Of a DNA stretch of 64,000 bases, positions 4,623-62,937 are shown in pieces. The DNA is taken from the sequence record PQ850608.1; one strand, written 5' to 3'. The notes beneath the pieces are model-generated. The model was not told the DNA's origin. It did not search any database and saw nothing but the letters and a program-made list of their open reading frames with translations. Position 1 is the stretch's first letter. Every line of letters begins with the position of its first letter. The DNA comes from Escherichia phage HermannAdler_Bas98. The position numbers and the translations under genes are program-made.

Positions 4623-4623
4623 T

Positions 4624-5475: not shown

Positions 5476-5482
5476 GGTCATT

Positions 5483-39422: not shown

Positions 39423-39442
39423 TTTGTTTCCTTAATTAAATA

Positions 39443-39658: not shown

Positions 39659-39660
39659 GG

Positions 39661-39828
39661 TTATTCGCCCTTATCTTTGCCTTCTATGGAATAAGTCTCA
39701 ATGGAACCGACGCGCTCGTGGTTAACCTTTGCGTTTTCGATTCTTATTACTTCAAATCCAACGCCTTCTTGATCAATCTTCACTTCTGCCACGTCGCCAA
39801 TCACTTCTACAACAACTTTGATAGTCAT
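39661..39828 (-). CDS. Small hypothetical protein (about 55 aa, below track length cutoff)
   Basis: Read by eye as MTIKVVVEVIGDVAEVKIDQEGVGFEV...; fills gap between flanking genes; coordinates approximate within 1-2 nt. Confidence 0.3.
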   Translation of the reverse strand: MTIKVVVEVIGDVAEVKIDQEGVGFEVIRIENAKVNHERVGSIETYSIEGKDKGE

Positions 39829-39831
39829 GAT

Positions 39832-40515
39832 TTATTTCCCAAATGGAATATCAGTACCAGACATAAAGCGCCATGCGCCCGTAATTAAGATATGGCGAAT
39901 GAAGTCAGCAATTACTTGCGGCTCAGTCTCCAATCCATTCATCAATGCCTTTTTCTGGTATTCAGCGGCGTATTCAGGAGTCCATCCGCGAGTCGCGCAA
40001 ACAGCATCTTCAATCTGTTTAGACATACCAGTGCCGCGCAACTTGTTAGGACTAATAGAGAATACCGTGATGCCGTATTTAGGCGTAAGCTCGTGAGCCA
40101 TCTGCTTGCTAATCATAAGCGCAGCAGCCTTGGATGCATTATAACACAAGCTGGACGTCATAGGAATATGCGCAGCGTTAGAAACGATATTGATCACAAA
40201 ACCTTTGTTGTCGATAAGACTTTTCAGCGCGGCCTGAGTCGTGTTGACGAAAGAGAAGGCGTTGGTGTGCATAACGCGATTGAACTCTTCGTAGTTAACA
40301 TCTTCGAACCAGTTGTTGGAGTTGACGCCAGCGCAGTTGATCAAGCCTTCTACATCATATGGGCTTAAAATTTCTTTCATCTGTTTAGCGTCGCGGACGT
40401 CATATCCGTATGCTGAATCGATTCCAAGCACGTTATGACCGTAAGCGCCAAGGGTGTCAAAAATAGATTTACCAAGACCGGAATTGGAACCTGTTACAAC
40501 AATTACTTTTTTCAT
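39832..40515 (-). CDS. Short-chain dehydrogenase/reductase (SDR) family oxidoreductase
   Basis: Rossmann motif TGSNSGLG near N-terminus and catalytic YNASK (YxxxK); 227 aa. Confidence 0.8.
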   Translation of the reverse strand: MKKVIVVTGSNSGLGKSIFDTLGAYGHNVLGIDSAYGYDVRDAKQMKEILSPYDVEGLINCAGVNSNNWFEDVNYEEFNRVMHTNAFSFVNTTQAALKSLIDNKGFVINIVSNAAHIPMTSSLCYNASKAAALMISKQMAHELTPKYGITVFSISPNKLRGTGMSKQIEDAVCATRGWTPEYAAEYQKKALMNGLETEPQVIADFIRHILITGAWRFMSGTDIPFGK

Positions 40516-40536
40516 TTATTTATCCTTTTTGGACTT

Positions 40537-40570
40537 CGTTTCGATGAGGTAAATATAACTCATCGAAACG
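40537..40570 (-). promoter_or_regulatory. Conserved inverted-repeat element upstream of RBS (copy 2)
   Basis: Perfect 12-bp inverted repeat CGTTTCGATGAG...CTCATCGAAACG with 10-nt loop; just 5' of SDR gene RBS on the minus strand. Confidence 0.5.
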
Positions 40571-40580
40571 CACAAGTAAA

Positions 40581-41456
40581 CTATTTATTGAAATTAATAT
40601 TATGGGTGTTAACAAGACGTTCACACATGGCGCTATAAACACCATCGTCGTGTATTGAGTCTTCGTGCTTCAGGCCGCTGATTGCGAAGCGTGTAAGCTT
40701 GACAATCTTAAGCTCGAACAGATGCCACATGTGGTAGTCTTCCGGTGTCTTCAAAGTTACGCCATTAGGGAACAACACCTGCATAACCTGACCTACCATC
40801 ACAGCGTTATCGCCATAAACGGCATTGCGCTCACGGAAGGTCGCGGCCATCGCATCAAGAATATCAGCAGCGGTTGCTGGGGCTTGTTGTTCAACTTCAA
40901 CAAGTTTAGTCTCTTCTTTCCCTGTTGCACTTGGATCAACTGCTAATTGTTGCACCACTTCACCTGCCTTGCAAAGATTAAATGTAAAGGCGATTTTATT
41001 TTGCGCCATGGAATTATAGTGCAAAGCTTCTTCTTGCATCCGCGCGAGTACGTCTTGTCGGTCGTCGAATACATTGATGATTCGATAATCGCCGTGCCGC
41101 AAAGCGTGCGATAGCCATGCAGATTTCATAATAGTTGATGGACGTTTGTCGCCATAGTCTCTCATCTTGATTGTAAATTCATCAAAAGGGAAAACATTGT
41201 CCAGACGTTCAAAAGTCACTTGTCTGTATTTTTCTGGCCTTGCAGTCCAATATTCAACCGCCTCACCGCGAAGAGATGCCGACTCTACTGCTGATGCAAT
41301 GTGAGGATAGAACTGATCATAACCAATACCGCTGTGATAGTCATCATAGTCTGACAACGGACCTGCCACCTTGATGCGGTCTAAGCGCCAACGGTCATCA
41401 AACAGCGTTCCGTCAAGGTCGAATACGTTTAAGATTTCGCTGTTTTTAATGCTCAT
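40581..41456 (-). CDS. HAD-superfamily phosphatase with C-terminal extension
   Basis: N-terminal motif I FDLDGTLFD (DxDGT); 291 aa, C-terminal half unassigned. Confidence 0.6.
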   Translation of the reverse strand: MSIKNSEILNVFDLDGTLFDDRWRLDRIKVAGPLSDYDDYHSGIGYDQFYPHIASAVESASLRGEAVEYWTARPEKYRQVTFERLDNVFPFDEFTIKMRDYGDKRPSTIMKSAWLSHALRHGDYRIINVFDDRQDVLARMQEEALHYNSMAQNKIAFTFNLCKAGEVVQQLAVDPSATGKEETKLVEVEQQAPATAADILDAMAATFRERNAVYGDNAVMVGQVMQVLFPNGVTLKTPEDYHMWHLFELKIVKLTRFAISGLKHEDSIHDDGVYSAMCERLVNTHNINFNK

Positions 41457-42262
41457 CCTTTTGATACTCCATCTTTAGCAACTGGATTGTTGGTGATTGG
41501 CATTGCACTCCAAAACTGGATGCGCAACTCTTCTTGCTGTGCCGTGGTATCCATCCAATCACGATACCAAGGGCAATGGGCTTTGCCATGACGAGGAAAC
41601 GCGCATTTACCCATACCGATGCATTGCGGCTGTAATAGTGGATTTGCCCACGGGTGCACCTTGAGGACTTCCGCAACCATTGCGCGGAATACTTCTTGAT
41701 ACTCGCCTTGGGTGCGCGTGCACAAGCGGTTTGACGCCATCTGCTGCAGCGTGCGCAAGTTGAACTTTGCCATGATATGCGTTTGCATATTAGAAGGCAA
41801 CACGGCACGTGCATCTTGAATCTCTGCGCCAGCCGCGCGAAGCTCTTGGTATAGAGCGTCAATCGTGGCCATCGCATCATCCCACTTCTCTGCCAATGAG
41901 TGATTTCTTATGTGCACATCATCAAATGCATTTTCATCATTGCAGTCAAAAGGGTGCTCGAATGCCTTCGGACGAATCGCATCAAATGCAGACGACTCCT
42001 GAGCGCGGCTGGTGCGTTCTTGATATGCGCCTGTGCGTGTGCGTACCATCTGATGGGTCATGTTCTTTGATACAGCTGTGATATCAAAGATATAGTCCAC
42101 AAAGTCAAAAGGAGACCTGATTGTATCAAGCATGTAGCGCCAGTGCTCTTGCTTCTCTGATTCTGTCATCTCAGAGACTGGCTTACCAGTCATGCGCGTG
42201 TTCTTTGTTTCCAGCAAAAGGTCAAGTGCATCTTGGGTGTATCGAATTAATTCAACTTTCAT
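41453..42262 (-). CDS. Divergent ThyX-like (flavin-dependent thymidylate synthase family) protein
   Basis: Aligns by eye to the ThyX core: QMVRTRTGAYQERTSR where ThyX has the RHR-x7-S motif, and RAVLPSNMQTH...R.L..M...R against the second ThyX block; Cys-rich C-terminal tail CIGMGKCAFPRHGKAHCPWY. Confidence 0.65.
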   Translation of the reverse strand: MKVELIRYTQDALDLLLETKNTRMTGKPVSEMTESEKQEHWRYMLDTIRSPFDFVDYIFDITAVSKNMTHQMVRTRTGAYQERTSRAQESSAFDAIRPKAFEHPFDCNDENAFDDVHIRNHSLAEKWDDAMATIDALYQELRAAGAEIQDARAVLPSNMQTHIMAKFNLRTLQQMASNRLCTRTQGEYQEVFRAMVAEVLKVHPWANPLLQPQCIGMGKCAFPRHGKAHCPWYRDWMDTTAQQEELRIQFWSAMPITNNPVAKDGVSKG

Positions 42263-42275
42263 TTTAATTATCCTA

Positions 42276-42722
42276 TTAACGGTAATTCACTAGTTGCTGA
42301 TCACCAGAGAAGGTGCAATGATAAACGAATTGTGCGTTATAAAGCAACTGAAAACTTTTCTTTGGTTCATTATTAGAACTCATTGATGTAAAGATTTCTG
42401 CACCAGAACGGTTTTCACCAATCAGGTTAATAAAGTCGCCAGTTGAACGAGGCTGAACGAAAGTGAAACGCTGCATCCACGGAGTCCGGTTGGCACCTTT
42501 TCCGGTGAATCCCTGAATCTGAATATTCAGACCTTCTTGCTCGTTCACACCGATGTAAGTGGTAATTGTTGCGCCAGTCGTCGCTGCAGTCTTGCCGTCC
42601 ATCGCTTCGCAATCGTAAACAGCGATTGAATCGGAAGTACGGACAGCGGCTTCAGTCGCTTCCATATACATGGTTCCGAGAATAGCAGTTGCGGCAAGCG
42701 CGATTCCAGTGATGCGTTTCAT
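42276..42722 (-). CDS. Secreted protein with signal peptide
   Basis: N-terminus MKRITGIALAATAILGTMYMEA; 148 aa. Confidence 0.5.
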   Translation of the reverse strand: MKRITGIALAATAILGTMYMEATEAAVRTSDSIAVYDCEAMDGKTAATTGATITTYIGVNEQEGLNIQIQGFTGKGANRTPWMQRFTFVQPRSTGDFINLIGENRSGAEIFTSMSSNNEPKKSFQLLYNAQFVYHCTFSGDQQLVNYR

Positions 42723-42787
42723 TTTCGTTTCCTCTATGAGTTCTGCTTCAATGATTAAAGTATACGCCCATTGAAGCAGAAAGCAAA

Positions 42788-43783
42788 TTATTTATTAGCA
42801 ATATAAGCAAATTTTTGATAGTTATTTGCTTTGATGAGTTTTTCAACTTCAGCAAGGTCATGAGCGACGTCATCAAGCAAAATGTTTCGCCAAGTAGCGA
42901 ATCGACCGACACTAAATACGTTCAAATCCATGGTCAGTTGCAGGAGTAGAGCGTGTCGCAAGTCTTTCGGAATGTCGACAATCTTGCCATACTTCTGGTC
43001 GACCTTTTCAACTTCTTCGAGAGCGATGTCACTCCATGATAGGCCAAAGGCTGTCAATACTTCGTCAACTTCTGCACGCAACTTAATGTCACGGTAACGA
43101 GTAATGCCGCCAGCGGCTTCAACTGCGGCTTCACTTACGCTAACCAAAGGAATTGTTTCGATGATCAGCGTGTCACCAGTGATTGATGCGCGGTAAGTTC
43201 TGACGGAGTAGTCAGGGAAGTAAATTGTCTGATACAACTCACACTTACGTTTAATCTTAAAGCGGTAAACACGAATGTTTGCTTTATCAAATGAAAAATC
43301 AAGCTTTTGATCAATCCCAGCCAGCTTCATCATAACTGGCAGCGGCGACGTGTTGATGATTGGCGTCTCGCTATAGCCGCAAAGAGTATCAACAGGAGTA
43401 TTAAAGAATATGCGGTCGCCCAGTTTGTCGACAAGCTGATCATAAAAGTCATCAGGCGCAATATAACGCGTTGCAGTTTTAAGCTTCATGATTGAACGGC
43501 TGCCAAACTGATTGGTGACCTTCATGGAATACATATTGGCAAGGTTGATTGGACAATGGTCGTGGTAGTAGTTGCCGCGAAAATACACAGCCTTGTCAAC
43601 TGTCACGGCCTTAAAAGGGATTCCGGTAATACGGCTTACTTCTTCGCCGCGAAAGCGTAGCAGTGCCTTGTGCTGTGGCGCTCGCTCCCCTGCTTCGTAC
43701 ACAATAGAGTTCGGGAAGTGACACGCGGTGATAAGTCCTGCCAAACCGCCGCCGATAATCATTACAGGTTGTTTCATGTTCAT
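42788..43783 (-). CDS. FAD/NAD(P)-binding oxidoreductase
   Basis: Dinucleotide-binding GxGxxG at N-terminus (MIIGGGLAGL) followed by acidic residue pattern; 331 aa. Confidence 0.6.
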   Translation of the reverse strand: MNMKQPVMIIGGGLAGLITACHFPNSIVYEAGERAPQHKALLRFRGEEVSRITGIPFKAVTVDKAVYFRGNYYHDHCPINLANMYSMKVTNQFGSRSIMKLKTATRYIAPDDFYDQLVDKLGDRIFFNTPVDTLCGYSETPIINTSPLPVMMKLAGIDQKLDFSFDKANIRVYRFKIKRKCELYQTIYFPDYSVRTYRASITGDTLIIETIPLVSVSEAAVEAAGGITRYRDIKLRAEVDEVLTAFGLSWSDIALEEVEKVDQKYGKIVDIPKDLRHALLLQLTMDLNVFSVGRFATWRNILLDDVAHDLAEVEKLIKANNYQKFAYIANK

Positions 43784-43863
43784 TTGTCCTTTGTGGGTGA
43801 TATGAGAAGTATAATAGCTAAATTATTTTACAGCAACAAGTCATTTCTATTTAGTACAGACGA

Positions 43864-43890
43864 AAAAAGACCCACAACAAGTGTGGGTCA
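43864..43890 (-). terminator. Rho-independent terminator (minus strand)
   Basis: GACCCACAACAAGTGTGGGTC hairpin, T-run on minus strand (AAAAAA on plus). Confidence 0.6.
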
Positions 43891-43917
43891 ATTACCGCTA
43901 TATAACCGTCCTACAGG

Positions 43918-44763
43918 TTATTCCGCTTGATCACCGTCTTCGGCATCGTCGTTGGATTCAACATCGACAAACTCGATGTGGCCCATCTCTTCCAGCTTGC
44001 TCAGGTAGGAGCGAACGGAAGCGCCAAACAGCTGATCTTTAACTTTCTCGCCCAGCTCATCGATAGACTGCGCCACGCCAACTTCGCCTTCTTTGATCGC
44101 CGCCAGAACGCGCCCACGGGTGGAGTGCTCCTGCGGCTGGCTCAGGCCGTTGCCAGTGTAGATGAAGTGAGTAGCTTTTGCACGGCGCTGACCGTTTGCC
44201 TTTTTGGCAGCCTTGCGCTCTGCGATGGCTTTGCGACGTTCTTCAGCTTCTTTCTTACGCTGTTCTTTTTGCTGTTCTGCAGCTTCTTTCGCCGCGATCT
44301 TAGCAGCTTCACGCTCTGCCTTGCGTTTCGCTTTCGCTTCTTCTTTAGCCTTCTCTTTTTCGGCCTTTGCTGCAGCACGGGCTTGATCACGCTCTGCTTT
44401 CTTAGCAGCAGCTTGTTCAGCTTTCAGGCGCTTGGCTTCTTCTTTGGCCTTTGCCTTTTCGATTTCTTTTGCTGCTTTAGCGGCTTCACGCTCTGCTTTC
44501 TTAGCAGCAGCCTTTTCTGCACGCTCTTTAGCTTTCTTAGCTGCTTCTTCAGCACGCTTCTGAGCCTTCTCATCAGCAGCCTGTTTGCGCTTCAGCGCGG
44601 CTTCTTCACGCTTGGCTTGTTTTTCCTGCTCACGCTTCTGGCGTTTTTCTTCGGCTTCTTTCTTTTTAGCCAGGCGTTTTTCTTCAGCCACGCGACGACG
44701 TTCTGCTGCGGCTGCTTGTTTTTCTTCTTTAGATAATACTTTGATTGCTTCGGCCATATTCAC
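43918..44763 (-). CDS. Lys/Glu/Ala-rich repeat protein with globular C-terminal domain
   Basis: About 200 aa of KEA-rich low-complexity helix-like repeats (AEEKRLAKKKEAEEKRQK...), then an ordered domain with acidic tail; underlying DNA has tandem repeats. Confidence 0.55.
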   Translation of the reverse strand: MNMAEAIKVLSKEEKQAAAAERRRVAEEKRLAKKKEAEEKRQKREQEKQAKREEAALKRKQAADEKAQKRAEEAAKKAKERAEKAAAKKAEREAAKAAKEIEKAKAKEEAKRLKAEQAAAKKAERDQARAAAKAEKEKAKEEAKAKRKAEREAAKIAAKEAAEQQKEQRKKEAEERRKAIAERKAAKKANGQRRAKATHFIYTGNGLSQPQEHSTRGRVLAAIKEGEVGVAQSIDELGEKVKDQLFGASVRSYLSKLEEMGHIEFVDVESNDDAEDGDQAE

Positions 44764-44916: not shown

Positions 44917-46101
44917 TTAACGCGCTTTCAAATCACGGTACACGGTCAGATTCTTCTTAGCACGGGTGATAGCGGTGTACATCATCTTGGAGTACGGAAC
45001 GCCGCGCAGGATTTCTTCCAGCACGCACACATTGTCCCACTCGCTGCCTTGCGATTTGTGCACCGTGATGACATAGCCATAGTCCATGCCTCCAACAGCG
45101 CGTTGCGCTTCTTTGCGCACTTCCTGATCAGTAGAGAAGGAAAGAGGATTGATCTTCACCTTTATATCTTTACCATCAGTTAATGAACGTAAGTTGACAT
45201 ACATTATTTCATTCGACTCATCTTCATCCCTTTCGAAGTCCGGCACTGGCTCATAGCTAATAACAATCCCTTGCTCGCCATTACAGAATCCTGGCCCGTG
45301 TTGGTTGAAGGTGCAAATAACCTTCTCACCGATTCCTGGCATTGGCGTTATACGTCCGCTCACTTGCCGTAATAATGAATTCCATTTATCTTTTGTGCTA
45401 TTATAGGAGCAAATAATTTGATCATCTTCGCCCATGAATTTCTTCAATGCAGTAACGCGCGGCGATTCTGCCAATACTTTGACGTCATCGTATTCACGCG
45501 GAGGAAGGCGGTTGCCTTGGCGCACGAAGAAGGAGGCGCGGATTATATTGGACTCTTTCCCTTGCCGCATGATTTCTGTTAACAGTACGTCAACGGCATC
45601 TTCAGTAAAGTAGGCGGCGGCTTTTACCGGAGGGACTTGTCCAATGTCGCCTAATGCCAGGACAGGGATGCGGTGATCAAGAAGGCGCTCTGTGTCCCAC
45701 TCGCCAACCATCGACGCTTCATCGAGTACAACAAGATGCGGCCTTTCATCCAGCTTTGACTTTCTCGAAAAGATTGGCTCATTGTCGTCATTTACGCCGC
45801 GCACGTTATAGATGAACTGGTGAAGGGTCTTAGCGCCACGACAGCCTTTTTGCTTTAATCGGCTTGCAGCCTTTCCGGTCGGCGCAATATAGATAGCTCC
45901 ATACTCACCGACACAACGGCGCACAATCTCGCGAGCAATAGAGGTTTTACCAGTCCCTGCATAGCCAGCAATGAAAAACACGCGCTTCGTCGTTTTACCG
46001 TCCTGCAATCGCTTGTACCATGCAACGGCTTTCTCGATGGCGTCGATTTGTTGCGCGTTAAACTGAATCACTGGCTCATCATTAAATTCTGGAATGTTCA
46101 T
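44917..46101 (-). CDS. RecD/Dda-like superfamily 1 DNA helicase
   Basis: Walker A GYAGTGKTS, Walker B VVLDEASMV, C-terminal TVHKSQGSEWD motif. Confidence 0.8.
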   Translation of the reverse strand: MNIPEFNDEPVIQFNAQQIDAIEKAVAWYKRLQDGKTTKRVFFIAGYAGTGKTSIAREIVRRCVGEYGAIYIAPTGKAASRLKQKGCRGAKTLHQFIYNVRGVNDDNEPIFSRKSKLDERPHLVVLDEASMVGEWDTERLLDHRIPVLALGDIGQVPPVKAAAYFTEDAVDVLLTEIMRQGKESNIIRASFFVRQGNRLPPREYDDVKVLAESPRVTALKKFMGEDDQIICSYNSTKDKWNSLLRQVSGRITPMPGIGEKVICTFNQHGPGFCNGEQGIVISYEPVPDFERDEDESNEIMYVNLRSLTDGKDIKVKINPLSFSTDQEVRKEAQRAVGGMDYGYVITVHKSQGSEWDNVCVLEEILRGVPYSKMMYTAITRAKKNLTVYRDLKAR

Positions 46102-46427
46102 TATAACTCCACTACGCTGTCAAGGTCCAGATATACTGGAATAAAATGGCAATCTTCTTTTCGTTCAAACATCTCACCATCAACATGGCTGAAGAAAACA
46201 GTTGTGTTTGGTATCTTCCATCCTTTCTCGTCGCGCACTAAGTACGCCATGGATTCAACAGGGATGTACAGCGATACCGGATTTGCGGCAAAAATAAATT
46301 TGATTCTGTCTGGTTGACCCAGAAATCGCATGATTGTTAGGCTTGAATTCAATCTTGTATTAAGGAAGGACTCAACGATTCCGACGTGTGTTGCACGTTC
46401 GCGTTGCTTCGTCTCTTTTTCGTTCAT
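46101..46427 (-). CDS. Hypothetical protein
   Basis: 108-aa ORF, first gene of minus-strand block adjacent to divergent promoter region. Confidence 0.45.
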   Translation of the reverse strand: MNEKETKQRERATHVGIVESFLNTRLNSSLTIMRFLGQPDRIKFIFAANPVSLYIPVESMAYLVRDEKGWKIPNTTVFFSHVDGEMFERKEDCHFIPVYLDLDSVVEL

Positions 46428-46587: not shown

Positions 46588-47670
46588 ATGGCTAGTTTAA
46601 GAGAAGAAGCAAAAATAATCGAAGAGTTTTTGACGGAACTCCAAAGAGGCATTCCAGAAGACGAACGCGTCATGACCGTGTTTGCGCCTGAAGCGACAGT
46701 GCAGACTGACGAGCGCGGCAAGAAGATCAACAGCAGCTTCTGGCCTAAGCCTTGGAAGTTGGGCAAGTCGCTCATGCAGCACCAAAACGGCTATGCGTGC
46801 ATCAGTTCAATGCGTAAGTCTCCCAACCCAAAGACGGGTGAGATGCGATACTGGCGTACAGAGTCGGCCTTTGGTCACGGCATGGCGATGATGGTCGACG
46901 ACATCGGTCACGGTAAAGGGTCCAAAGGCGATTTAGATTTGGAATTCTTTTTTGAGCGACTGAAGCCGACTGTCATCGTCGAGACTTCACCGAACAACCA
47001 CCAGCTTTGGTACTTCTTTAAAGAACCGATTGACCATCTTATTCAGTTCAAAGCGTTCCTTGGGTCTTTCGTTAACATGGTACTCAAGAAGGGCGGCGAC
47101 AACACGATTAAAGACGTAACGCGCGTGGGCCGTGTTCCTGGGTGCATCAACAACAAGCGTGTGACTCACGACGGCCCCTATAAATATGTCGATGAGAACG
47201 GCGACCCGTTCCGCTGCCGACTTGTCCATGCAGACTACTCATTGCGCTACACCATCGAAGACATTTGTCAGGCATTTGGCTTTCACGTCGTCATGCCGCA
47301 AAAGCGTGAGATTCAAATTGACGTCGATGAATACAAGTATGATGCTGTTTGGTATAAAATAGCCCAGCAGATTCTATCGCGCAACAAAATGGGTGAAGGG
47401 TCTGATGGCGACGTCATCGAGAACATGTCAGGCAAGTGCCGCATAATCTGTCCTTGGGGTGAAGAACACACCAACGGCGACCCGTATGGCGCTTACTTTC
47501 GCGGCCCTATTCCTGGTGCAGAACATGAGTTTGTGTTCGGTTGCGCCCACGACTGTCACCGGAAAGGGGAAGGCAAGAAAGGTTGGACTGCTTTTGTTGA
47601 AGCAATCGTCATGCCTTATATTGAGAATCAACTTGACATGATAAATCGTCGTGCAGGTGGCATAAAATAG
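46588..47670 (+). CDS. Primase-like protein (archaeo-eukaryotic primase-type suspected) with C-terminal Cys/His cluster
   Basis: Acidic DxD-type motif MMVDDIGHG, SPNNHQLWY block, C-terminal CPWGEEH...CAHDCH metal-binding cluster; adjacent to VirE-like P-loop protein. Confidence 0.45.
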   Translation: MASLREEAKIIEEFLTELQRGIPEDERVMTVFAPEATVQTDERGKKINSSFWPKPWKLGKSLMQHQNGYACISSMRKSPNPKTGEMRYWRTESAFGHGMAMMVDDIGHGKGSKGDLDLEFFFERLKPTVIVETSPNNHQLWYFFKEPIDHLIQFKAFLGSFVNMVLKKGGDNTIKDVTRVGRVPGCINNKRVTHDGPYKYVDENGDPFRCRLVHADYSLRYTIEDICQAFGFHVVMPQKREIQIDVDEYKYDAVWYKIAQQILSRNKMGEGSDGDVIENMSGKCRIICPWGEEHTNGDPYGAYFRGPIPGAEHEFVFGCAHDCHRKGEGKKGWTAFVEAIVMPYIENQLDMINRRAGGIK

Positions 47671-48552: not shown

Positions 48553-48843
48553 ATGAATATTGTAATTCTTTATGGTGAAAATATCAGCGATGACGACATC
48601 GAAGTTGCCGTTGATGTTTACGGTATCGATGAGGTGAAACGTGTTGAAGAAATTAGTGGCGCAAATCTCAATGAGATTGTCAAAGAAGCTGGCTGTCCTT
48701 CGGAAGAGATTCTGGTGGTTACTAACGATGACCTGTCTTCTATGGATCATTTGCGCCGCATCTTCACCGATTGCCAATACCTTCATGCTGTTCAATCAGT
48801 AAACAAATTGAGAAAGGCATACGCTGACCAATTTCCTTGCTGA
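48553..48843 (+). CDS. Hypothetical protein
   Basis: 96-aa ORF. Confidence 0.4.
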   Translation: MNIVILYGENISDDDIEVAVDVYGIDEVKRVEEISGANLNEIVKEAGCPSEEILVVTNDDLSSMDHLRRIFTDCQYLHAVQSVNKLRKAYADQFPC

Positions 48844-48979: not shown

Positions 48980-50650
48980 ATGTCAATTAATAATGACAAT
49001 CTTCCAGAGGATACAGGTGATGAATTTGGTGCAATCTTTGACGAAATTCAAGATGCAGGCGTTTCGGAAGAAATGCAGGCAGCAGAGCAGCAAGGCACCA
49101 GAGCTAAAATCAGCCTTCAACACAAAGCCGTTGAAAAAGATTCAGAGCGCATGGAATGCTACGGTGAAGAAGACTTGGTTGAAAGAGCACGCTTGCTCGC
49201 CTCACTTCAGGTAATCAAGTTCCCTCACTACAAGCCTACCAAAGATGACTTCGTTCTACAGGCAGACCGGACGAGTGACATGAACCGTTATGCGGTTTTC
49301 GACGCGTTGTTTGATAAGGGAAGTGGCGTTGTTCCATTCCCTCACAAAGATACTTTTCGTGGGCGCTTAGTCGACCATCGCGGCGAAACTTTCACCGACC
49401 GGACGTTGGAAGTCACAGAGATAGTTGCCGCTGTCGACGCAGCAGGTCTGTCCAACCCAAACTCACGTCAGGTAGCTCAATCCTATAAGGAATGGGCTAT
49501 GCGTTATCAGCGTGACGACCTGATGGACTTCTTCTACAAGAAGCTGCCTGAATGGGACGGTACTGCGCGCATTGAGAAATACCTTATCGAGCTATTCCGA
49601 CCGTTCGATACAGAGTTAAACCGACAAATCGGTGTGTATTTTTGGCTATCGCTCTACAACCGACTGACCAACCCTGGCTGTCAAGCGCCAATCTCCATCG
49701 CGCTCATCGGCGGCCAGAACGCAGGGAAGAGTTATTTTAGCAAGCTACTTTGCGAAGCTATTATGAACGACCGCCACGCAACACCGATTCCGTTGAACTT
49801 AGCCGCGCAGAACTTCAACCCGTTCTTGCGAGCTATTACGGGTCGCTCAATTATCGCGAACGTCGGCGAGATGACAGGCTTTAAAAAGGCCGACATCGAA
49901 AACATGAAAGCATTCCTGACTAAGACGGAAGATGACCTGGACTTCAAATTTGAAGATACTCAGGTTAAACCACGCCAGTGGATTGCTATCATGGACGGCA
50001 ACGAATACGCAGGCATGCAGCGTGATGACACGGGCAACCGTCGTGTGTATCCTATCTTTGTTGGCCAACTCGCTGACAAGGACGGGCAACCGAACTGGTC
50101 GAAAGATTTCCAAGCTGACCTTTCCACTTTGAAAGAAGACGTTTGGCAGTTGATGGCTGAGTGCGCTGCATGGATGGAGAAGCACGGCGAAGCAGGCTAT
50201 AACGCGTTTGTTGGTGAAACATCTCGCATGCTTACTGAGTTCAGTAAAAACGAAATGGAACGTGCACGCGGCGTTATTCGTGATGAGATGGTTGACAACG
50301 ACCTTGTTGAAGTCGTCATCACCGCGCCTTATGACCGACATCACAGCGGACGCTGGCACATCACCAGTGGTGCTATTGCTATGGGATTCAGAGCGAAGTG
50401 CGGCAAGTCGCCTTTCTCTCGTACCCTTGCGCCGCACATGTCGAAGCTTGGTTTTGAGCCTGCGACCTATCGCAACCAGCGCGGTTACTTTACGCCGCTG
50501 ATTAAGAATGAAGCAGGGGAATACATTTCCGACTTGATGACCATCTTAGCGTATCTTATCCGTGATGAGTCTGACCCTGAAGATATTGAATTCTTGAAGA
50601 AGGTTATCGAGCGTAAACGTTCTTTGGGAAGAGATAAGGATGAATTCTGA
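48980..50650 (+). CDS. VirE-like / primase-associated P-loop NTPase (putative replicative helicase)
   Basis: Walker A IGGQNAGKS; 556 aa; RBS AGGAGG; adjacency to primase-like gene. Confidence 0.55.
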   Translation: MSINNDNLPEDTGDEFGAIFDEIQDAGVSEEMQAAEQQGTRAKISLQHKAVEKDSERMECYGEEDLVERARLLASLQVIKFPHYKPTKDDFVLQADRTSDMNRYAVFDALFDKGSGVVPFPHKDTFRGRLVDHRGETFTDRTLEVTEIVAAVDAAGLSNPNSRQVAQSYKEWAMRYQRDDLMDFFYKKLPEWDGTARIEKYLIELFRPFDTELNRQIGVYFWLSLYNRLTNPGCQAPISIALIGGQNAGKSYFSKLLCEAIMNDRHATPIPLNLAAQNFNPFLRAITGRSIIANVGEMTGFKKADIENMKAFLTKTEDDLDFKFEDTQVKPRQWIAIMDGNEYAGMQRDDTGNRRVYPIFVGQLADKDGQPNWSKDFQADLSTLKEDVWQLMAECAAWMEKHGEAGYNAFVGETSRMLTEFSKNEMERARGVIRDEMVDNDLVEVVITAPYDRHHSGRWHITSGAIAMGFRAKCGKSPFSRTLAPHMSKLGFEPATYRNQRGYFTPLIKNEAGEYISDLMTILAYLIRDESDPEDIEFLKKVIERKRSLGRDKDEF

Positions 50651-51297
50651 TGAATAAAGCAATCAACATCGCTAAATTCTTTCAACATCTTGGTGAACTG
50701 AACAAAGAAAGTGACGTTCACGGCGAAGAAATGAACCGGATGATCTCAACCGTGTTGCGTGGCTTTGGTTATGATAAGGACTCAATCACTTGCAAGCGTA
50801 CAAAGCTTGTTGATGAGTCTTATCTTTACTACGTAGAGCTGCGCATCGGGAAAGATGTGATGATCATTGACCCTAAACTGGAAGGGGCGCACTGTTTTGG
50901 CGCTCACCCTCGTGCGAGTGAATTCAAGGGGCGCGGTCGCAACCGAATCCAGAAGCTTGATGACGCAGGCGACTTGAACATTGCAATGTTCCTTAAAGAG
51001 TTCCTTGCGCTACCGAAGGTTGCATCATCCACTGGCCGTGATGACCCTTGCAAGATTGGATTCAGAACTAAAGATTTGCGCAATGCGCTACGCAAGAAGG
51101 GATTTGTGCCTTCTTATGACAACGTCGCCGCGCTGATGGCTTCAATGGAGGAAGCTGAAGCAATGGATAAAGTGCGCGGCTATTTCCTGAATACAGGCTT
51201 CACCATGTATGAATGGCACACGAAGGGATTGACTGTCGCCGACTTCATCTATTCATTAGAGCAGAAGTATGTACGCAATATGCAGGCCACAGGATAA
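50650..51297 (+). CDS. Hypothetical protein
   Basis: 215-aa ORF, ATGA overlap with upstream gene. Confidence 0.45.
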   Translation: MNKAINIAKFFQHLGELNKESDVHGEEMNRMISTVLRGFGYDKDSITCKRTKLVDESYLYYVELRIGKDVMIIDPKLEGAHCFGAHPRASEFKGRGRNRIQKLDDAGDLNIAMFLKEFLALPKVASSTGRDDPCKIGFRTKDLRNALRKKGFVPSYDNVAALMASMEEAEAMDKVRGYFLNTGFTMYEWHTKGLTVADFIYSLEQKYVRNMQATG

Positions 51298-57510: not shown

Positions 57511-57932
57511 TACAGCGTTACGACCTGACATATGACGTGGCATCAGACGATTTCGCCGTCACTCCCGTTCCAGAAAGTCATGAAGGACGTTTTGTTGCAT
57601 ATGAGGACTATGAATCACTACTCAAGCTTAATGAGTCGCTAACAAAAGAGATTGAGCAATACCGCGAGCGCATCAAAGCCGCTGAAGATGTTATCAAGCT
57701 TTTTAGCGAGGCTGTTGAGAAATACAAGGAGCGCAACGTGCCGATTAAGGAGGAAGCGTGGACCGTGTGGTTTGGTGGCGTGAATCCGGTGCCTGGGAAG
57801 ATGGTTGAGTTTGAATTACTCAACGGTTATAAATCAAAAGGTGCTGTTCCTTCGGATAGTTTGACATGGGATAAAGTCACAAGCCCGACTGGTGCAAAGA
57901 TTGTTGCTTATCGGGTCGTTAAGGAGGGGTGA
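57507..57932 (+). CDS. Hypothetical protein with conserved C-terminal W-GG-NPVPGK domain
   Basis: C-terminal WTVWFGGVNPVPGKMV...IVAYRVVKEG paralogous to C-terminus of 56122-56625. Confidence 0.45.
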   Translation: MIQRYDLTYDVASDDFAVTPVPESHEGRFVAYEDYESLLKLNESLTKEIEQYRERIKAAEDVIKLFSEAVEKYKERNVPIKEEAWTVWFGGVNPVPGKMVEFELLNGYKSKGAVPSDSLTWDKVTSPTGAKIVAYRVVKEG

Positions 57933-58381
57933 TGGGTAACAAGCTTATCGCCGCTGGTTGGGCCATACCGAAGTGGGCTCATCGTGCGCACTACTTTGAT
58001 GAAGGAGAAGTGCAAAGCCTTTGCGGTCGCGCAACATACTTTGGTGATGAGCGCGTCAGCGGCGATTACATCGACTCGCTTTTAGGCAAAGGTGATTGCA
58101 AGAAATGTCAGGATATATTAAGAGATATTCTAACGCAAAAAGGACTGCTTGAGCTTGATGAGTCGGAGGAAGTAATAGAGCTTAAGCTTGAAGCCAATCA
58201 CCTTATTAATATGTTCAAGAATTATTACTCAACGAATATGCGCTCAAAGATGCGTGAGGAAGTAATAAAAGAGGTGCTCACTTACAATCCGTTAAGGATG
58301 AATAAAACTAAACTGAAGAAGTTTAATGCAATAGTAAGAAAGGAATTTAGACGGCTTGGAGTGAAGAATTTTATATTTTAA
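57929..58381 (+). CDS. Hypothetical protein
   Basis: 150-aa ORF followed by strong terminator. Confidence 0.45.
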   Translation: MMGNKLIAAGWAIPKWAHRAHYFDEGEVQSLCGRATYFGDERVSGDYIDSLLGKGDCKKCQDILRDILTQKGLLELDESEEVIELKLEANHLINMFKNYYSTNMRSKMREEVIKEVLTYNPLRMNKTKLKKFNAIVRKEFRRLGVKNFIF

Positions 58382-58422: not shown

Positions 58423-58899
58423 GCCTGTGTAATGGGAGGCTTTTGTGGTTATTTACGATTCAAGGCTGTAATTTAAGAGAGCGAAAATATTATAATAATT
58501 TATCAAGATTATTGCATATTGTGGCAATCAACGTTTATACGTATTTATGACAGTTTAATCCACTAAATAATACGGATAGAACAGTGAGGAAAATACAGCG
58601 GTGTATTTTAGTGTAAATATTGAATCAAAAATAAATAATTATGGTGCTATTATATACGCAGATTGTTTGTAATTTATAGGATATTTTATCGTGGAGTATT
58701 GGCTAACGGTGCGTTAGCCGTGGGTCTTGGTGCTTGTGGTGTTGATGCTCAGAATTTTAATAATGTTTTTAGTTTTAGTAATCGTAGTCAATGATGATAC
58801 GTATAAGAAAATGAGAGTCACCCCTTCACAGGATATTGTACCGTGGCCCTGTGGTGCGCCGCGCCTGGGATTGCTGGTATACACTGGTGCTATTTTGCC

Positions 58900-59170
58900 G
58901 CGAAGGCAGTCATTCATACGTATCATGACGTATCATTGGGCTATTGATTTATAAGGAAAAATACGCTGATACGGATGATACGGGTGCAAACATAATATAT
59001 ATAGAATTCCAGAAAATTAATTAACTCCATTTTGAATTAATTTAAATTAATTTTTTTCTACATCCTCATACTTATACTAAACTTATATTCATACGTATCA
59101 TCCGTAAGATATAAGTAAAAACAAGGACTTGCGGCAATACGGATGATACGTCATGATACGCTTCGACCAG
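58900..59170. repeat. Iteron array flanking AT-rich spacer (copy B of a duplicated element)
   Basis: ACGTATCATGACGTATCAT, GATACGGATGATACG, CAATACGGATGATACGTCATGATACG around AT-rich core (AATTAATTAACTCCATTTTGAATTAATTTAAATTAATTTTTTT); collinear with 6580-6870. Confidence 0.7.
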
Positions 59171-59364
59171 CCAGCAGCGGCTAAGTCATTGATTTGCATA
59201 GCAAGCGGCGAAAGGGATGGATTTCTTTTATACGTATCAAACAGTACACCACGCACCACGGTCCGCAATCCTATTTGCAATATGATTTGTGTACGTTTAT
59301 AGCCATAATGAACATCAATCTGCACTTGAATATAATGTCCATCCATTGTATAATTCACACTATT

Positions 59365-60575
59365 AATTTGCACTATGGGATTTTGCACTATGAGTCAAGA
59401 TTATGTAGCGATGCCTGAAGACTTTGAAGACCCGCGATTCGCAGAGCACAATCAGGCTTTATTCGATGAGTTCATTGACCTTGTTATTCAGGGTCATGAC
59501 ATGCGCGCAGCTTTTGCACTAGTATTTGGAATGGAAGTTGCAACGGATAACTACACTGGCCAGCGAATCCTTTGCACGCAACGCAATCCATACTACAAGA
59601 TGCGCTTCAAAAAGCGTATGGAAGAGATGCCACTCAAGGATTTGTGGAGCGTAAAAGGTGCAATTCACAATTTGGTCAAGCTTGTGCGTGATCCAGAAGT
59701 CGCGGCGTCAGCCAAGCTTAATGCTATTCGTGAACTGAATATCATCTACGGCATCACGATGATTGATGAAAACGGCAATAGTAAAATGGGCCGTTCTATG
59801 GACGATTTCTACAAGGATTTTGGAGAGGCTGCCAAAGAAGGAGAGCAATTCTCCCGCCACTAGCCAATTTGCACTATAAAACGGCCCTAGAACACATGTT
59901 CTCCACTTCTAGGGCCATCGGTAATACGACGGGGAAGGTCGCACCCATAAACGCGTTAGAAAGTGTATTATTATAAGTCATCTTTTAGTCGCTTTACGTA
60001 ACAATTTACGACCTTCAACCGTCCAATCGAACGACTCCACCAGCAGATTCGCACTATAACCTAAGACGATGCGCCCTTTCTCGTTATCGACCCGCCAACA
60101 AGTCTCGAATAGCATTCGATTTGCACTATTAACTATTGCCGCAACGCGCGTAGGGTAAGCGCAATTTGCACTATGGTCGTAAAGGGATAAGGTGCGACCA
60201 CTTCCGATGGACAATGTAGCGATGAGAATAAGCGTATTCATAAGCCACCAATTTGCACTATGAAAAGCGACCCCGAAGGGCCGCCATTCGATTAGATAAT
60301 CTGGAAGGTGTAGGACTTGTTGCCGAACTCGAAGTTCAAGCGTCCAGCTTCTTTAAGCTTCATGCGGAAGCGAATGTGCTTGCTATCCGGTAATCCCAGC
60401 GCGGCGAAGGCTACGCGGACCGATTTGAACTCGCCTACACCCTCGACCATAACGCCGTTACGGGTGAGACGCTTTTGCGCCACTTCCTTATTATCCCAAC
60501 TTTTTGCAATACCTTCGCTATTCGAACGGCGATGGGAAGGAGTTCCATTTTGCACTACGCAATTTGCACTATCGT
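59365..60575 (+). repeat. Dispersed cluster of 11-bp motif ATTTGCACTAT (at least 8 copies, same orientation)
   Basis: Copies read near 59365, 59381, 59867, 60046 (ATTCGCACTAT variant), 60120, 60166, 60251, 60547 and 60559; several lie inside predicted minus-strand ORFs. Confidence 0.6.
59390..59863 (+). CDS. Hypothetical protein
   Basis: 157 aa from Met6 of track ORF; start codon overlaps an ATTTGCACTAT motif copy. Confidence 0.45.
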   Translation: MSQDYVAMPEDFEDPRFAEHNQALFDEFIDLVIQGHDMRAAFALVFGMEVATDNYTGQRILCTQRNPYYKMRFKKRMEEMPLKDLWSVKGAIHNLVKLVRDPEVAASAKLNAIRELNIIYGITMIDENGNSKMGRSMDDFYKDFGEAAKEGEQFSRH

Positions 60576-60918
60576 TTAAGCCGCTCTTAACGAAGGCTTC
60601 ATACTCTTCATCGCTCATCGCGTCGAGTTCTTCCTGGGTCGGCTCAGCCTTTTTAACGACCGCACGCGCCTTATGCGTTTTTACATCACTGGACACTTCC
60701 TCACGCGGCTTCGCGTCGGGAATGGGCGATTCGTTGGACGGCTCATCGAGCGCGTTTAAGGACTCGATTAACGCGATTACGCGAGTCTCGGCGGTCCGGC
60801 GGTCCGCAAATTTCTTAATCGGCTTCGAACCGGAATTTGCATTATAAAATGCAACGAGGTCGGCGGTCTTAGTTGCGATAACGTCGCCGCTAGTAGAAAA
60901 GCGATTTAAGCTAACCAT
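60292..60918 (-). CDS. Hypothetical protein
   Basis: 208-aa ORF in CpG-rich terminal segment; contains two motif copies on the opposite strand. Confidence 0.4.
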   Translation of the reverse strand: MVSLNRFSTSGDVIATKTADLVAFYNANSGSKPIKKFADRRTAETRVIALIESLNALDEPSNESPIPDAKPREEVSSDVKTHKARAVVKKAEPTQEELDAMSDEEYEAFVKSGLNDSANCVVQNGTPSHRRSNSEGIAKSWDNKEVAQKRLTRNGVMVEGVGEFKSVRVAFAALGLPDSKHIRFRMKLKEAGRLNFEFGNKSYTFQII

Positions 60919-60998
60919 AATAAACTCCTATTTGTTAGGGCGCTAGGCGCGAAAGAATTTTATTAAAGCGCCGCGCACGACGCTCTAAAAATCCTCTC

Positions 60999-61313
60999 TT
61001 ACTCTTCGTCGTCTTCGATTAATTCGAGGGCGAAGGCGTAAGCTTTGCTATCGTAATTAACTAAAACGGCGAGTTCGAACTCGTTAATAAACGCCGTTTT
61101 ACCGCATAAATTTAATTCCGCATCGACTTCGAAGAATCCGTTTTCGTCGCGCTCTAAGCGAGAAGCAGCGAGTTGCTCGATTACCGTCGCGTCGTTAATT
61201 TCTTCGCCTAAGCGAACGCCGGAGAATTTCGCGAGAATTTCGCCGTAAGTAAGCGTAACGCCCTGGACTTCGGCGGCGGCGTTTTCGAGGGTAAAGCGGG
61301 TAACGATAGCCAT
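60999..61313 (-). CDS. Small acidic hypothetical protein
   Basis: 104 aa, acidic with C-terminal EDDEE; good coding character. Confidence 0.45.
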   Translation of the reverse strand: MAIVTRFTLENAAAEVQGVTLTYGEILAKFSGVRLGEEINDATVIEQLAASRLERDENGFFEVDAELNLCGKTAFINEFELAVLVNYDSKAYAFALELIEDDEE

Positions 61314-61537
61314 AATAAACTCCTAGTTGGGAGAGGCGTTAACGACCTATTCGTTAACTCATCCCGTCCCGATATGAGTACATTATAATATAGTGTAGAA
61401 AAAAGTAAAGCACTTTTTCGATAAAAATGCGATAAATTATTTTATCTTTTTTCTTTACTTCTTCGTACACTCGCGTATACTTGTTTATATCGAGACGGGC
61501 GATGGCCCTTTCTTCTACTAGCATCGGGAGCTTTATT

Positions 61538-61840
61538 ATGACTACTTTAATCTCTTCCATCCTTACTTACGACGAAGACCGCTTAACCGTTCGCTCTCTT
61601 ATCGCCGCCGTTAACGCGGAACTAGAATCTAGCGCCATTAAGGTCCGCGCGGTCGCCTTCATCGGCCTTTCCTTCGACGATATGAAGTATGCCGAACGTA
61701 GCGCCATCCGCTTCGCGAAGACCGACGACGAAGCCGTTACCCTTATCGAGACGGTTACGCCGCGCGGCGAAGCGTTAATTATCGTCGAGTATATCGACGT
61801 AGAAGGCGATAAATCTTATAAACATTTTATCGCAGAATAA
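61538..61840 (+). CDS. Small acidic hypothetical protein
   Basis: About 100 aa from Met20 of track ORF; preceded by shared promoter-like element. Confidence 0.4.
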   Translation: MTTLISSILTYDEDRLTVRSLIAAVNAELESSAIKVRAVAFIGLSFDDMKYAERSAIRFAKTDDEAVTLIETVTPRGEALIIVEYIDVEGDKSYKHFIAE

Positions 61841-61852
61841 CGAAAAAAGTGC

Positions 61853-61881
61853 TTTACTTCTTCGTACACTAAGACTATAAT
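61853..61881 (+). promoter_or_regulatory. Sigma70-like promoter TTTACT-N17-TATAAT containing shared element CTTTACTTCTTCGTACACT
   Basis: -35 TTTACT 61853-61858, -10 TATAAT 61876-61881; the 19-nt element also occurs at 61452-61470 upstream of 61538 gene. Confidence 0.5.
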
Positions 61882-61948
61882 GTTTTATATCGAGAGGGGA
61901 TGAGGTAGCGAATAGGTCACTACCCTCCCGACTAACTAGGAGAATATT

Positions 61949-62239
61949 ATGATTACTTTAGCCGCTATCCGTTCCGCTCGCGTCGAAACTTCCGAAAACT
62001 CTAACGTATTTGGCGAAAAACTTAAAAACGTTTATCTCTTTAACGTAGATGCGACTATCGAGGAGCTTCACAGTCCTATCGATTTTAGCGAATTTACGGA
62101 ACTCGAAGAGGAAGATATTTCTACCTTCCGCGTTACTATCGAAGGCAAGGTTTATTTTGCTACGGAGTTCGGCGGCGAATATCTCGCGGTATCCGAAGGC
62201 GAAGGCCGTTACTCTTTCTTTAAAATCGTTTCCTTATAA
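61949..62239 (+). CDS. Small acidic hypothetical protein
   Basis: 96 aa, Glu-rich; RBS AGGAG before ATG; followed by terminator. Confidence 0.45.
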   Translation: MITLAAIRSARVETSENSNVFGEKLKNVYLFNVDATIEELHSPIDFSEFTELEEEDISTFRVTIEGKVYFATEFGGEYLAVSEGEGRYSFFKIVSL

Positions 62240-62257
62240 TACCCTTCCGTTACTAAT

Positions 62258-62286
62258 AGGCCGCGCTTAGTCGCGGCTTTTCTTCG
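62258..62286 (+). terminator. Rho-independent terminator
   Basis: GGCCGCGCTTAGTCGCGGC hairpin then TTTTCTT. Confidence 0.6.
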
Positions 62287-62937
62287 TCCCTATCTCGATG
62301 CGCTCCTACGCGAAAACTCCTTTATCCTTCCCTTCGTCGTCGCATAATCTTCTTCGAGATGCGTCTTAGTTCGCATAACAGGTATTACGTTAAATGGAGA
62401 ACATCGCGTAAGTCCTTGTTTTATATAGACACCTATATCGGACCGTTAGGGCGGGTCGCGTAAGTCGTTGTTTTATAAAGGCACAAAACTTTCCCTTCGT
62501 TCCGAACTAAAACGAGAAATATGCCGACCCTTCGCCCGAAAATAGTACGTATGCGAAATTACATTCATCTCGAATAATCCCTCCCGATATTATCCTACAC
62601 GCAATCATTCGCTTTCGAATCATTATGCTTCATATTATTATGCGTCGAATCATTCGCTTTCGAATTGTAACGCTGGAAACTGTAACGTCGATTGATTATT
62701 GCGTTCGTGTGGTTTTTATGGCATGGGTCTTTTGGTGCGTTTTGCTACTTGATGGAATTTGCGGTACACTAATCAAAATACGACACATTTGGTCCACTAA
62801 CTTTTCAAAGAAAAAGTCCTAGACAGTACCGTACTATTTTGTACCCACAGGAAATTTGCAGTACACTCCTGAGCGGCAGGCAAAATAAAGGGCCGCACTA
62901 AGCGACCCACGATTCACGGTTAAATCAGCAACACCCA

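Follow-up and report, generated by a model that had tools for sequence, protein, structure and literature searches.

The genome of Escherichia phage HermannAdler_Bas98 (sequence record PQ850608.1) carries, between positions 59365 and 60575 of the 64,000-nucleotide stretch analysed here (the window), a cluster of copies of the 11-bp word ATTTGCACTAT, which raises the question of what a short word repeated in a single direction does in and around the gene of the small terminase subunit (TerS). The original prediction described at least 8 co-oriented copies in about 1.2 kb, and proposed a binding-site array for a phage regulator, a phage-specific promoter, or a packaging or replication recognition site. 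Our analysis shows that the cluster is a genuine, selected, co-oriented array of cis-elements. The window belongs to a Wifcevirus, a 68-kb myovirus of E. coli and Shigella, and shares 97.9% identity with ManiWeber_Bas99 and 93-97% with WFC, WFH, FEC19, ECML-117 and Mansfield.

We counted exact and one-mismatch occurrences of ATTTGCACTAT over the whole window and compared them with those in 100 dinucleotide-preserving shuffles. Six exact and five one-mismatch copies were found where 1.7 were expected, and none of the 100 shuffles contained 11 copies or more. Ten of the 11 copies lie on the + strand between 59273 and 60845, the remaining one being at 41016 on the minus strand. The span originally described contains the six exact copies (59366, 59867, 60119, 60164, 60251 and 60562), two one-mismatch copies (59381 and 60047) and two two-mismatch copies (59512 and 60548), all on the + strand, which confirms the cluster. 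Allowing two mismatches adds the copies at 59353, 59512 and 60548, each on the + strand. The copies that flank the span (59273, 59353 and 60835) are weaker, and the array totals 10-13 copies within 59273-60845, on the + strand only. The core T[TC]GCACTA behaves likewise, with 10 + strand matches at 59368-60564 versus 1 elsewhere in the window (41024, minus strand): the motif hardly occurs in the other 62 kb. No depletion of GCACTA or TAGTGC was found outside the array. Copies are irregularly spaced (13 to 355 bp), and the array extends over 0.9-1.6 kb. The tandem pairs noticed at about 12-16 bp were recovered at 15 bp (59366/59381) and 14 bp (60548/60562), with a further 13-bp pair at 59353/59366. 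No description of the motif was found in the literature available for search.

The array is independent of gene direction and reading frame. The motif is sense in TerS and antisense in two minus-strand genes, ORF87 (open reading frame 59978-60241, which holds the copies at 60047, 60119 and 60164) and ORF208 (60292-60918, which holds those at 60548, 60562 and 60835), and both stop-free frames are used. The two frames that avoid the TAG codon of the motif encode xSAN or VVQ in the minus-strand genes, and the motif is read as F-A-L in TerS; the constraint therefore bears on the DNA and not on the protein. On the complementary strand, which has its 3' end at the left terminus of the genome, the word reads 5'-TAGTGCRAAT-3'. 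The presence of copies within both minus-strand genes had been correctly noted, but the doubt that it was thought to cast on ORF 59978-60241 is not warranted. ORF87 is annotated in all relatives; it aligns with a protein of Pantoea phage Kyle, with which it shares a hydrophobic, signal-peptide-like N-terminus and two conserved cysteines, and further matches are found in Pantoea phage PA1 and Serratia phage Hera. ORF208 corresponds to phrog_4730, a family present across every related genus. Judging from these homologues, both are genuine genes.

The relatives also locate the array on the phage chromosome. The Mansfield record has an annotated direct terminal repeat of 3,673 bp, predicted by PhageTerm, and WFC was deposited with both repeat copies. 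Both records start with ATTTTAAAA..., which aligns to window position 59029; the array therefore occupies approximately positions 245-1817 of the repeat and points inward from the left physical end. It fills the left 1.8 kb of the ~3.7-kb repeat, around the TerS gene, a location that keeps alive the proposals of a binding-site array and of a packaging or replication site. The TerS assignment of ORF 59390-59863 comes from a phmmer match to PDB 7UXE, the E217 TerS decamer (E=7e-34). A sigma-70 promoter of near-consensus sequence, whose -10 element is of the extended type (TGTATAAT, 59347-59354), serves this gene and lies just upstream of the 59366/59381 pair, so that the copies at 59353, 59366 and 59381 together cover the -10 element and start site of the promoter as well as the 5' untranslated region and start codon of TerS. 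TerS is followed by ORF87, ORF208 and ORF104, all of them leftward, with hairpins at 59883-59917 and 60267-60284.

To assess constraint on the sites, we aligned 12 Wifcevirus genomes and compared, with Fisher's test, the nine central sites (59353-60251) with the rest of 59029-60300. Only 5 of 99 columns (5.1%) vary in the sites versus 168 of 1173 (14.3%) elsewhere (p=0.009); when noncoding DNA only is considered, the values are 3.8% versus 17.8% (p=0.006). The nine central sites are thus nearly invariant, with about threefold less variation than their flanks, and by this measure the motif sites are under purifying selection. The 60548/60562 pair is missing from ECML-117, RCIP0319 and Ro157lw, and the copies at 59273 and 60835 are weak and variable across Wifcevirus; as far as the alignment tells, the outer copies are dispensable.

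The comparison was extended to the lineages that have a TerS homologue, namely Pbunavirus, Myosmarvirus, Carpasinavirus, Kylevirus and many metagenomic contigs. In the records that annotate the termini or include the two copies of the repeat, TerS is located within the repeat, a few hundred bp from its left end. Among the TerS-bearing lineages compared, the GCACTA array is limited to a single clade, made up of Wifcevirus and the Kylevirus-like phages: Kyle has 10 TTYGCACTA-type copies (14 GCACTA cores), PA1 has 13 motif copies, and the Logan contigs L301 and L302 have 10 and 9, respectively. In these four Kylevirus-like lineages, every copy is co-oriented with TerS and lies ~100-1500 bp from the left end; counting Wifcevirus, the array zones of the five lineages contain 9-14 sites each and not a single inverted GCACTA. 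The array is therefore real, conserved, strictly oriented and confined to the left part of the repeat. A position-weight matrix built from 37 aligned sites reads cRATTYGCACTAY, with GCACTA present in all 37; the information is confined to ~10 positions, conservation ends within about 12 bp, and no second conserved element is found nearby. Few sites occupy homologous positions in different lineages (e.g. window 60119, Kyle 1077 and PA1 5241), and the proteins of the motif-sharing lineages are about 41-81% identical (TerS 43%, ORF208 46-48%, large terminase subunit, TerL, 81%). A word that is kept while its positions turn over and the proteins diverge points to selection on the word, its orientation and its zone, which is how Chi arrays also evolve.

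Searches based on k-mers in ~25 other TerS-family lineages revealed no comparable array, the exceptions being Chi arrays, a 16-bp tandem repeat in the metagenomic relative L046, and GCGGCAAT or TCGCGGCA elements upstream of TerS. The L046 repeat (7228-7396; ~10 TTCAAATCTTCAAAAG-like units, 2.2 kb downstream of TerS) is of a different kind, in the equivalent region. Two pattern scans of IMG/VR gave, among the matches listed, only Wifcevirus and unrelated Ser/Ala-rich coding repeats, and by these matches paired copies of the motif are not widespread.

The Chi sequence of E. coli RecBCD is 5'-GCTGGTGG-3', the only one that we know for this enzyme. The motif arrays of Kyle, PA1, L301 and L302 are embedded in sets of 9, 7, 5 and 6 copies, respectively, of the Chi complement, CCACCAGC, all in one orientation. 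All 7 copies of PA1 lie in the array zone, and the only other Chi in its remaining 69 kb has the opposite orientation. In Serratia phage MyoSmar, the equivalent zone contains 4 Chi sites. (These Chi arrays lie at 255-1972 in the Kyle locus, L005, at 4361-5940 in the PA1 locus, L175, in L301 and L302, and at 4653-4993 in the MyoSmar locus, L007.) According to the Chi orientation rule, such complements are active for RecBCD coming in at the left end (PMC12315714). Terminal Chi clusters are a known kind of feature, described in the lambdoid phage LLS and in P1 (PMC12315714); as far as we found, the literature reports them for lambdoid phages and P1 and not for this phage family. In the repeat of the window, a single Chi complement (60037) is joined by the Chi-like words CCACTAGC (59857) and CCACCAAT (60244), all three of them 0-2 nt upstream of a motif copy. 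These nested and adjacent Chi sites mark the left part of the repeat as a zone where polar, end-read signals accumulate. The motif itself is not Chi by sequence, TAGTGCRAAT, on the Chi-bearing strand, agreeing with it at ~4 of 8 positions. It behaves as Chi does in its co-oriented, end-proximal clustering, which is seen in five lineages, within the left ~1.8 kb and with the polarity of the real Chi arrays.

The two words are also found fused. In the Kylevirus-like phages, the C-terminal TerS peptide D-L-H-Y-P-P-A is encoded by the composite ATTTGCACTAcCCACCAGC, consisting of the motif plus Chi (L005 800-817; L175 locus ~4944-4961; TerS +449..+466 in L301 and L302). In the Wifcevirus counterpart, the TerS stop codon lies inside the Chi-like CCACTAGC, and the motif follows.

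We tentatively favour the reading in which the array is a strand-polar cis-acting signal for the processing of genome ends, provisionally classed with Chi or with single-strand initiation (ssi) signals, that marks the end-proximal half of the repeat and is interpreted directionally from the genome end or on an exposed strand. Speaking for it are the strict co-orientation, the retention of the word at changing positions, the nesting in Chi arrays of like polarity, the Chi sites of MyoSmar in the equivalent zone, the indifference to transcription, the purifying selection on the sites and the contacts with Chi in the window. The reader would work in one direction, either loading at the left genome end or acting there, and could track along the DNA or recognize a single strand. 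It would serve recombination-dependent replication, or the joining of terminal repeats into concatemers. In the variant that we prefer, resection from the left end, or a D-loop inside the repeat, would expose the TAGTGCRAAT strand, and the RepB-family primase or primosome of the phage would next initiate on the GTG-containing word. In an alternative variant, the word would act as a polar nuclease or helicase barrier. With rather more reserve, we suggest that the motif could be a second, non-Chi polar word, hitherto unrecognised, for an end-tracking or single-strand-reading enzyme of the host or of the phage, such as the RepB-type primase or primosome or a helicase-nuclease. Together with Chi, it would determine what happens to the free end of the repeat, which would be a dedicated landing site for recombination-dependent replication.

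The phage does encode a RepB-type primase (ORF 46588-47670; PF16793, E=2e-36). The RepB' primase of RSF1010 depends on specific signals in single-stranded DNA and initiates at the T of a GTG triplet (PMC8567376), and the invariant core of the motif on the 3'-ending strand, TAGTGC, contains GTG. By eye, no consistent hairpin was seen beside the motif copies. A PDB sequence search did not reproduce the Mansfield annotation of gp81 as RepB'-like. That the word is the same in phages of E. coli and of Pantoea, despite the divergence of the phage proteins, would also agree with a conserved reader supplied by the host, as Chi has.

Several observations weigh against the strand-polar reading. The primase is also present in Pbunavirus and Myosmarvirus, both of which lack the motif. 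The ssi signals of RSF1010 are 40-nt hairpins with a specific 5' arm (PMC8567376), not 10-mers. The motif matches Chi at 4 of 8 positions, and in so dense a zone its adjacency to Chi could arise by chance. The 13-15-bp tandem pairs, together with the three copies over the TerS promoter and start, look like operators for a binder of duplex DNA. The reader is to be sought among candidates (TerS, ORF208, clade-specific ORFs, the primase or a host protein), and it is from comparative anatomy that we infer it, the process served and the mechanism. As to gene presence, 7 ORFs are found in Wifcevirus and PA1 and not in Pae1650 or Hera, and Pfam and PHROGs assign a function to none of the 7. The clade-specific candidates include the ORFs at 57929-58381, 50650-51297, 28777-29319, 46101-46427 and 48553-48843.

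The alternative that survives best, although we consider it rather doubtful, is recognition by the terminase. TerS rings would bind direct repeats in and around their own gene, as in a pac- or cosB-like site, thereby marking the DNA for a nearby cut, and binding at 59353-59391 would auto-repress TerS. P22, Sf6, SPP1, P1 and lambda have their recognition sites within the TerS gene or adjacent to it, frequently as several direct repeats. The present array is similarly placed: it encircles a bona fide TerS gene (59390-59863), its sites (59273-60845) begin ~250-340 bp from the physical left terminus (59029), three copies extend over the promoter, start site and start codon of TerS, and the 13-15-bp spacing of the pairs could suit adjacent ring subunits. 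However, site and TerS do not co-vary. TerS homologues of similar identity (~32-41%) lack the array in Pbunavirus, Myosmarvirus, Carpasinavirus and ~20 metagenomic lineages, and TerS residues 1-62, assumed to form the DNA-binding domain, are 42% identical among motif-sharing lineages versus 38% with Pbunavirus. Moreover, the Kylevirus-like phages have almost no copy upstream of TerS, and the sites, irregularly spaced over more than 1 kb, are too far apart to wrap one ring. E217 TerS shows no appreciable DNA binding in vitro (PMC9611059). Following the logic established for lambda, Chi arrays that are active for entry at the left end imply that this end is exposed, not covered by terminase (PMC12315714). 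Finally, other conserved elements lie nearer the terminus: GCGGCAAT, the ATGATACG repeats and the AACAAGGACTT element.

The GCGGCAAT element (window 59131-59138, + orientation) is found 90-420 bp upstream of TerS in most lineages examined, regardless of GC content. Equivalents are present in L005, L006, L007, L014, L024, L026, L031, L034, L035, L040 and L042, and the Pbunavirus form, TCGCGGCA, occurs in 3-4 copies. This element is a better candidate than the GCACTA array for a conserved terminase or terminus signal. The ATGATACG word is present in 14 copies versus 1.5 expected, in two clusters (58794-59160 and 6595-6849) and in both orientations. The former straddles the left repeat boundary and includes a perfect 18-nt inverted repeat (58919-58936/59143-59160), the latter occupies the intergenic gap upstream of the prohead-protease gene, and the word looks like an operator for a phage regulator. 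The 17-nt element TATAAAACAA(G/C)GACTT(G/A)CG occurs at 59120-59130 (+), ~90 bp inside the left repeat end, and in inverted form at 62420 and 62472 (-), ~260-390 bp inside the right repeat end; the arrangement is repeated in Mansfield, WFC and Ro157lw, and these may be inward-facing promoters or boundary-recognition sites.

We regard as unlikely that the array is a set of operators for a sequence-specific DNA binder of the phage (ORF208 or a clade-specific small ORF) that would coat or silence the early genes of the repeat or build a nucleoprotein structure on it. The copies over the TerS promoter and 5' region, and the one just upstream of the ORF87 ribosome-binding site, are where operators would be expected, and several ORFs are common to Wifcevirus and PA1 only, among PA1, Pae1650 and Hera. 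Yet most copies are inside coding regions, distant from promoters, and independent operators have no need of complete (100%) co-orientation across 1-1.5 kb. With regard to ORF208, the protein is family-wide while the motif is not; it has a conserved basic C-terminal domain, and the matches of its model to nucleic-acid-binding folds are weak, below convincing levels. The motif has also remained constant while the candidate readers diverged to ~45% identity.

A duplex replication origin, with the copies as iterons bound by a phage initiator, is improbable. The sites are co-oriented direct repeats, the phage encodes a primase, helicases and DNA polymerase III subunits, and an intragenic location is no obstacle, the lambda ori being in gene O. 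Nevertheless, the copies lack the regular phasing of iterons and are spread over 0.9-1.6 kb, where 100-300 bp would be typical, and the array has neither an initiator gene beside it nor an AT-rich unwinding element or DnaA boxes. Pfam and PHROGs give no initiator annotation to the array-side genes TerS, ORF87 and ORF208, and GC skew tracks gene direction only, so that it provides no origin signal.

Still less probable is the proposal that an RNA polymerase specific to the phage, or modified by it, uses the copies as promoters. This proposal draws on the resemblance of CACTAT to the 3' end of T7/SP6-type promoters, GCACTAT(G/A) being like CACTATAG of T7-type promoters, and on the fact that every copy points inward from the left end, as do the T7 early promoters. 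But the likeness of GCACTATG to the T7-type 3' end is partial, and the information is limited to ~10 bp (conservation ending by ~12 bp at most) where T7-type promoters have ~17-23 conserved bp. From most copies, transcription would run antisense into the conserved leftward genes, TerS is served by a sigma-70 promoter of its own, the motif is virtually confined to the array, and the Mansfield annotation includes neither a single-subunit RNA polymerase nor a sigma factor. This part of the original prediction is not supported.

Lastly, chance, a by-product of a repeated peptide or a functionless selfish mini-repeat is effectively refuted. The motif often encodes x-S-A-N in the minus-strand ORFs, but no shuffle reaches the observed count; noncoding stretches, a gene on the plus strand and two frames of genes on the minus strand all contain copies; variation is lower in the sites than around them; and five diverged lineages have the array, mostly at non-homologous positions.

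A number of known elements were considered and rejected. As had been recognized from the outset, the copies are not sigma-70 promoters: a promoter scan places these elsewhere (e.g. 59326-59354), the motif has no conserved partner element, and its copies run mostly antisense to genes. The DnaA box TTWTNCACA failed since CACTA is invariant, all 37 aligned sites having GCACTA and never CACA. Comparison by eye or with the 37-site alignment showed that none of the sigma-54, extended -10, T4 MotA box, marbox, Tus-Ter, IHF, Fis, EcoKI and RfaH ops motifs fits the invariant GCACTA, several of them matching at just 6-7 of 9-11 positions. Leaderless gene starts were also considered: four copies end in ATG, and only those ahead of TerS open a real ORF. 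As for a structured RNA, Rfam returned two sub-threshold chance matches, both outside the array.

Other genes of the phage deserve mention. Members of the ORF208 family have an N-terminal three-helix domain, a disordered linker and a C-terminal domain with an invariant ...SKHIRFRMKLK... stretch. In Pbunavirus (L006 1339-1950) and in two unrelated metagenomic phages (L304 5001-5579 and L305 5001-5705), the gene is adjacent to that of the large terminase and divergently oriented, a placement that suggests a conserved role tied to packaging or early functions. The repeat also encodes three small, strongly acidic proteins (60999-61313, -; 61481-61840, +; 61949-62239, +), each gene having a near-consensus sigma-70 promoter ahead; no family matches were found for them, and they resemble early anti-defence or DNA-mimic proteins. 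Outside the repeat, a group of minus-strand genes (38871-44763) for ThyX, a HAD phosphatase, a short-chain dehydrogenase, a glyoxalase-fold protein and UDP-galactopyranose mutase adjoins the genes of the polymerase III alpha and epsilon subunits. This cluster suggests DNA hypermodification, which would fit the restriction resistance of Wifcevirus reported in the BASEL paper. The features of the array and its surroundings are collected in the table.

Table. Motif copies and accompanying features of the left part of the terminal repeat (window coordinates)
Feature	Position	Strand	Remarks
Direct terminal repeat, single copy in this assembly	59029..62813		Left terminus 59029; right boundary ~62733 (Mansfield record) or 62813 (WFC record)
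GCGGCAAT element	59131..59138	+	Kept 90-420 bp upstream of TerS in most related lineages examined
Weak copy ATTTGCAATAT	59273..59283	+	..AGCACTAT at this place in other Wifcevirus genomes
Sigma-70-type TerS promoter TTGAAT-17-TATAAT, TG upstream, giving TGTATAAT	59326..59354	+	Promoter scan
Variant copy ATTCACACTAT	59353..59363	+	Invariant, 12 genomes
Exact copy ATTTGCACTAT, tandem pair member 1	59366..59376	+	
Copy TTTTGCACTAT	59381..59391	+	Overlaps TerS start codon, ATG 59390
TerS gene	59390..59863	+	PDB 7UXE match, phrog_4783, Mansfield annotation
Copy TTTTGCACTAG within TerS, codons F-A-L-V	59512..59522	+	Invariant, 12 genomes
Chi-like CCACTAGC (complement of GCTAGTGG)	59857..59864	+	Across TerS stop codon; 2 nt upstream of copy 59867
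Exact copy	59867..59877	+	Between TerS stop codon and hairpin 59883-59917
ORF87 gene, small protein, secreted-looking; holds 3 motif copies	59978..60241	-	Relatives' homologues and annotation
Canonical Chi complement CCACCAGC, the only one of the repeat	60037..60044	+	2 nt upstream of copy 60047
Copy ATTCGCACTAT	60047..60057	+	ATTTGCACTAT in most other Wifcevirus genomes; change synonymous (Ala)
Exact copy	60119..60129	+	Positional homologue of Kyle 1077 and PA1 5241 (NSAN codons of ORF87)
Exact copy within ORF87	60164..60174	+	
Exact copy, CCACCA before it	60251..60261	+	Between ORF208-trailing hairpin (60267-60284) and ORF87 start
ORF208 gene (phrog_4730), two-domain protein, possible DNA binder; holds accessory copies	60292..60918	-	
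Copy TTTTGCACTAC, tandem pair member 1	60548..60558	+	Missing from 3 Wifcevirus genomes
Exact copy, tandem pair member 2	60562..60572	+	Missing from the same 3 genomes as 60548
Weak, variable copy ATTTGCATTAT	60835..60845	+	

Wifcevirus and Pbunavirus relatives are phage-therapy candidates or already in use, and a conserved polar 10-bp signal, interleaved with Chi in sister phages, points to a defined cis-acting system for genome ends. The sites indicate which sequences to keep when these phages are rebooted or engineered, and in new assemblies the array offers a rapid way to recognize where the terminal repeat has its left end and how it is oriented. The class of oriented DNA signals, which includes Chi, KOPS, Ter and cosQ, is very small; if the motif is indeed read from a DNA end, it would be a new member of this class, and would explain how these phages use, or escape from, host end-processing.

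Compared with known systems, the array shares features with several. It resembles the early promoters at the left end of T7, and the short repeats next to the T7 terminal repeat, in that short elements of one orientation lie within roughly the first kilobase of a phage genome bounded by direct terminal repeats; however, the T7 promoters are sense to the genes and have known RNA polymerases, and the T7 short repeats, for which we know of no established function, are unrelated in sequence. Like the R-sites of lambda cosB, the hexamers of P1 pac, SPP1 pacL/pacR and the pac sites of P22 and Sf6, it is made of multi-copy repeats by TerS, near a terminus and in coding DNA, but these terminase sites span ~20-300 bp and track their TerS, whereas the array covers 0.9-1.6 kb and is absent from most lineages with a homologous TerS. 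The ssiA and ssiB signals of RSF1010 are strand-specific, as the motif is, the phage has a RepB-family primase, and a start at GTG is compatible with TAGTGC; each ssi signal is, in contrast, a single 40-nt hairpin per strand located beside iterons, where the array has 10-14 hairpin-less 10-mers on one strand. In the terminal Chi clusters of LLS and P1, dispersed and irregularly spaced short words are co-oriented at one end, in coding and noncoding DNA, as in the motif array. The sequence differs, no enzyme is known to read the motif, and Wifcevirus has a single Chi and two Chi-like words.

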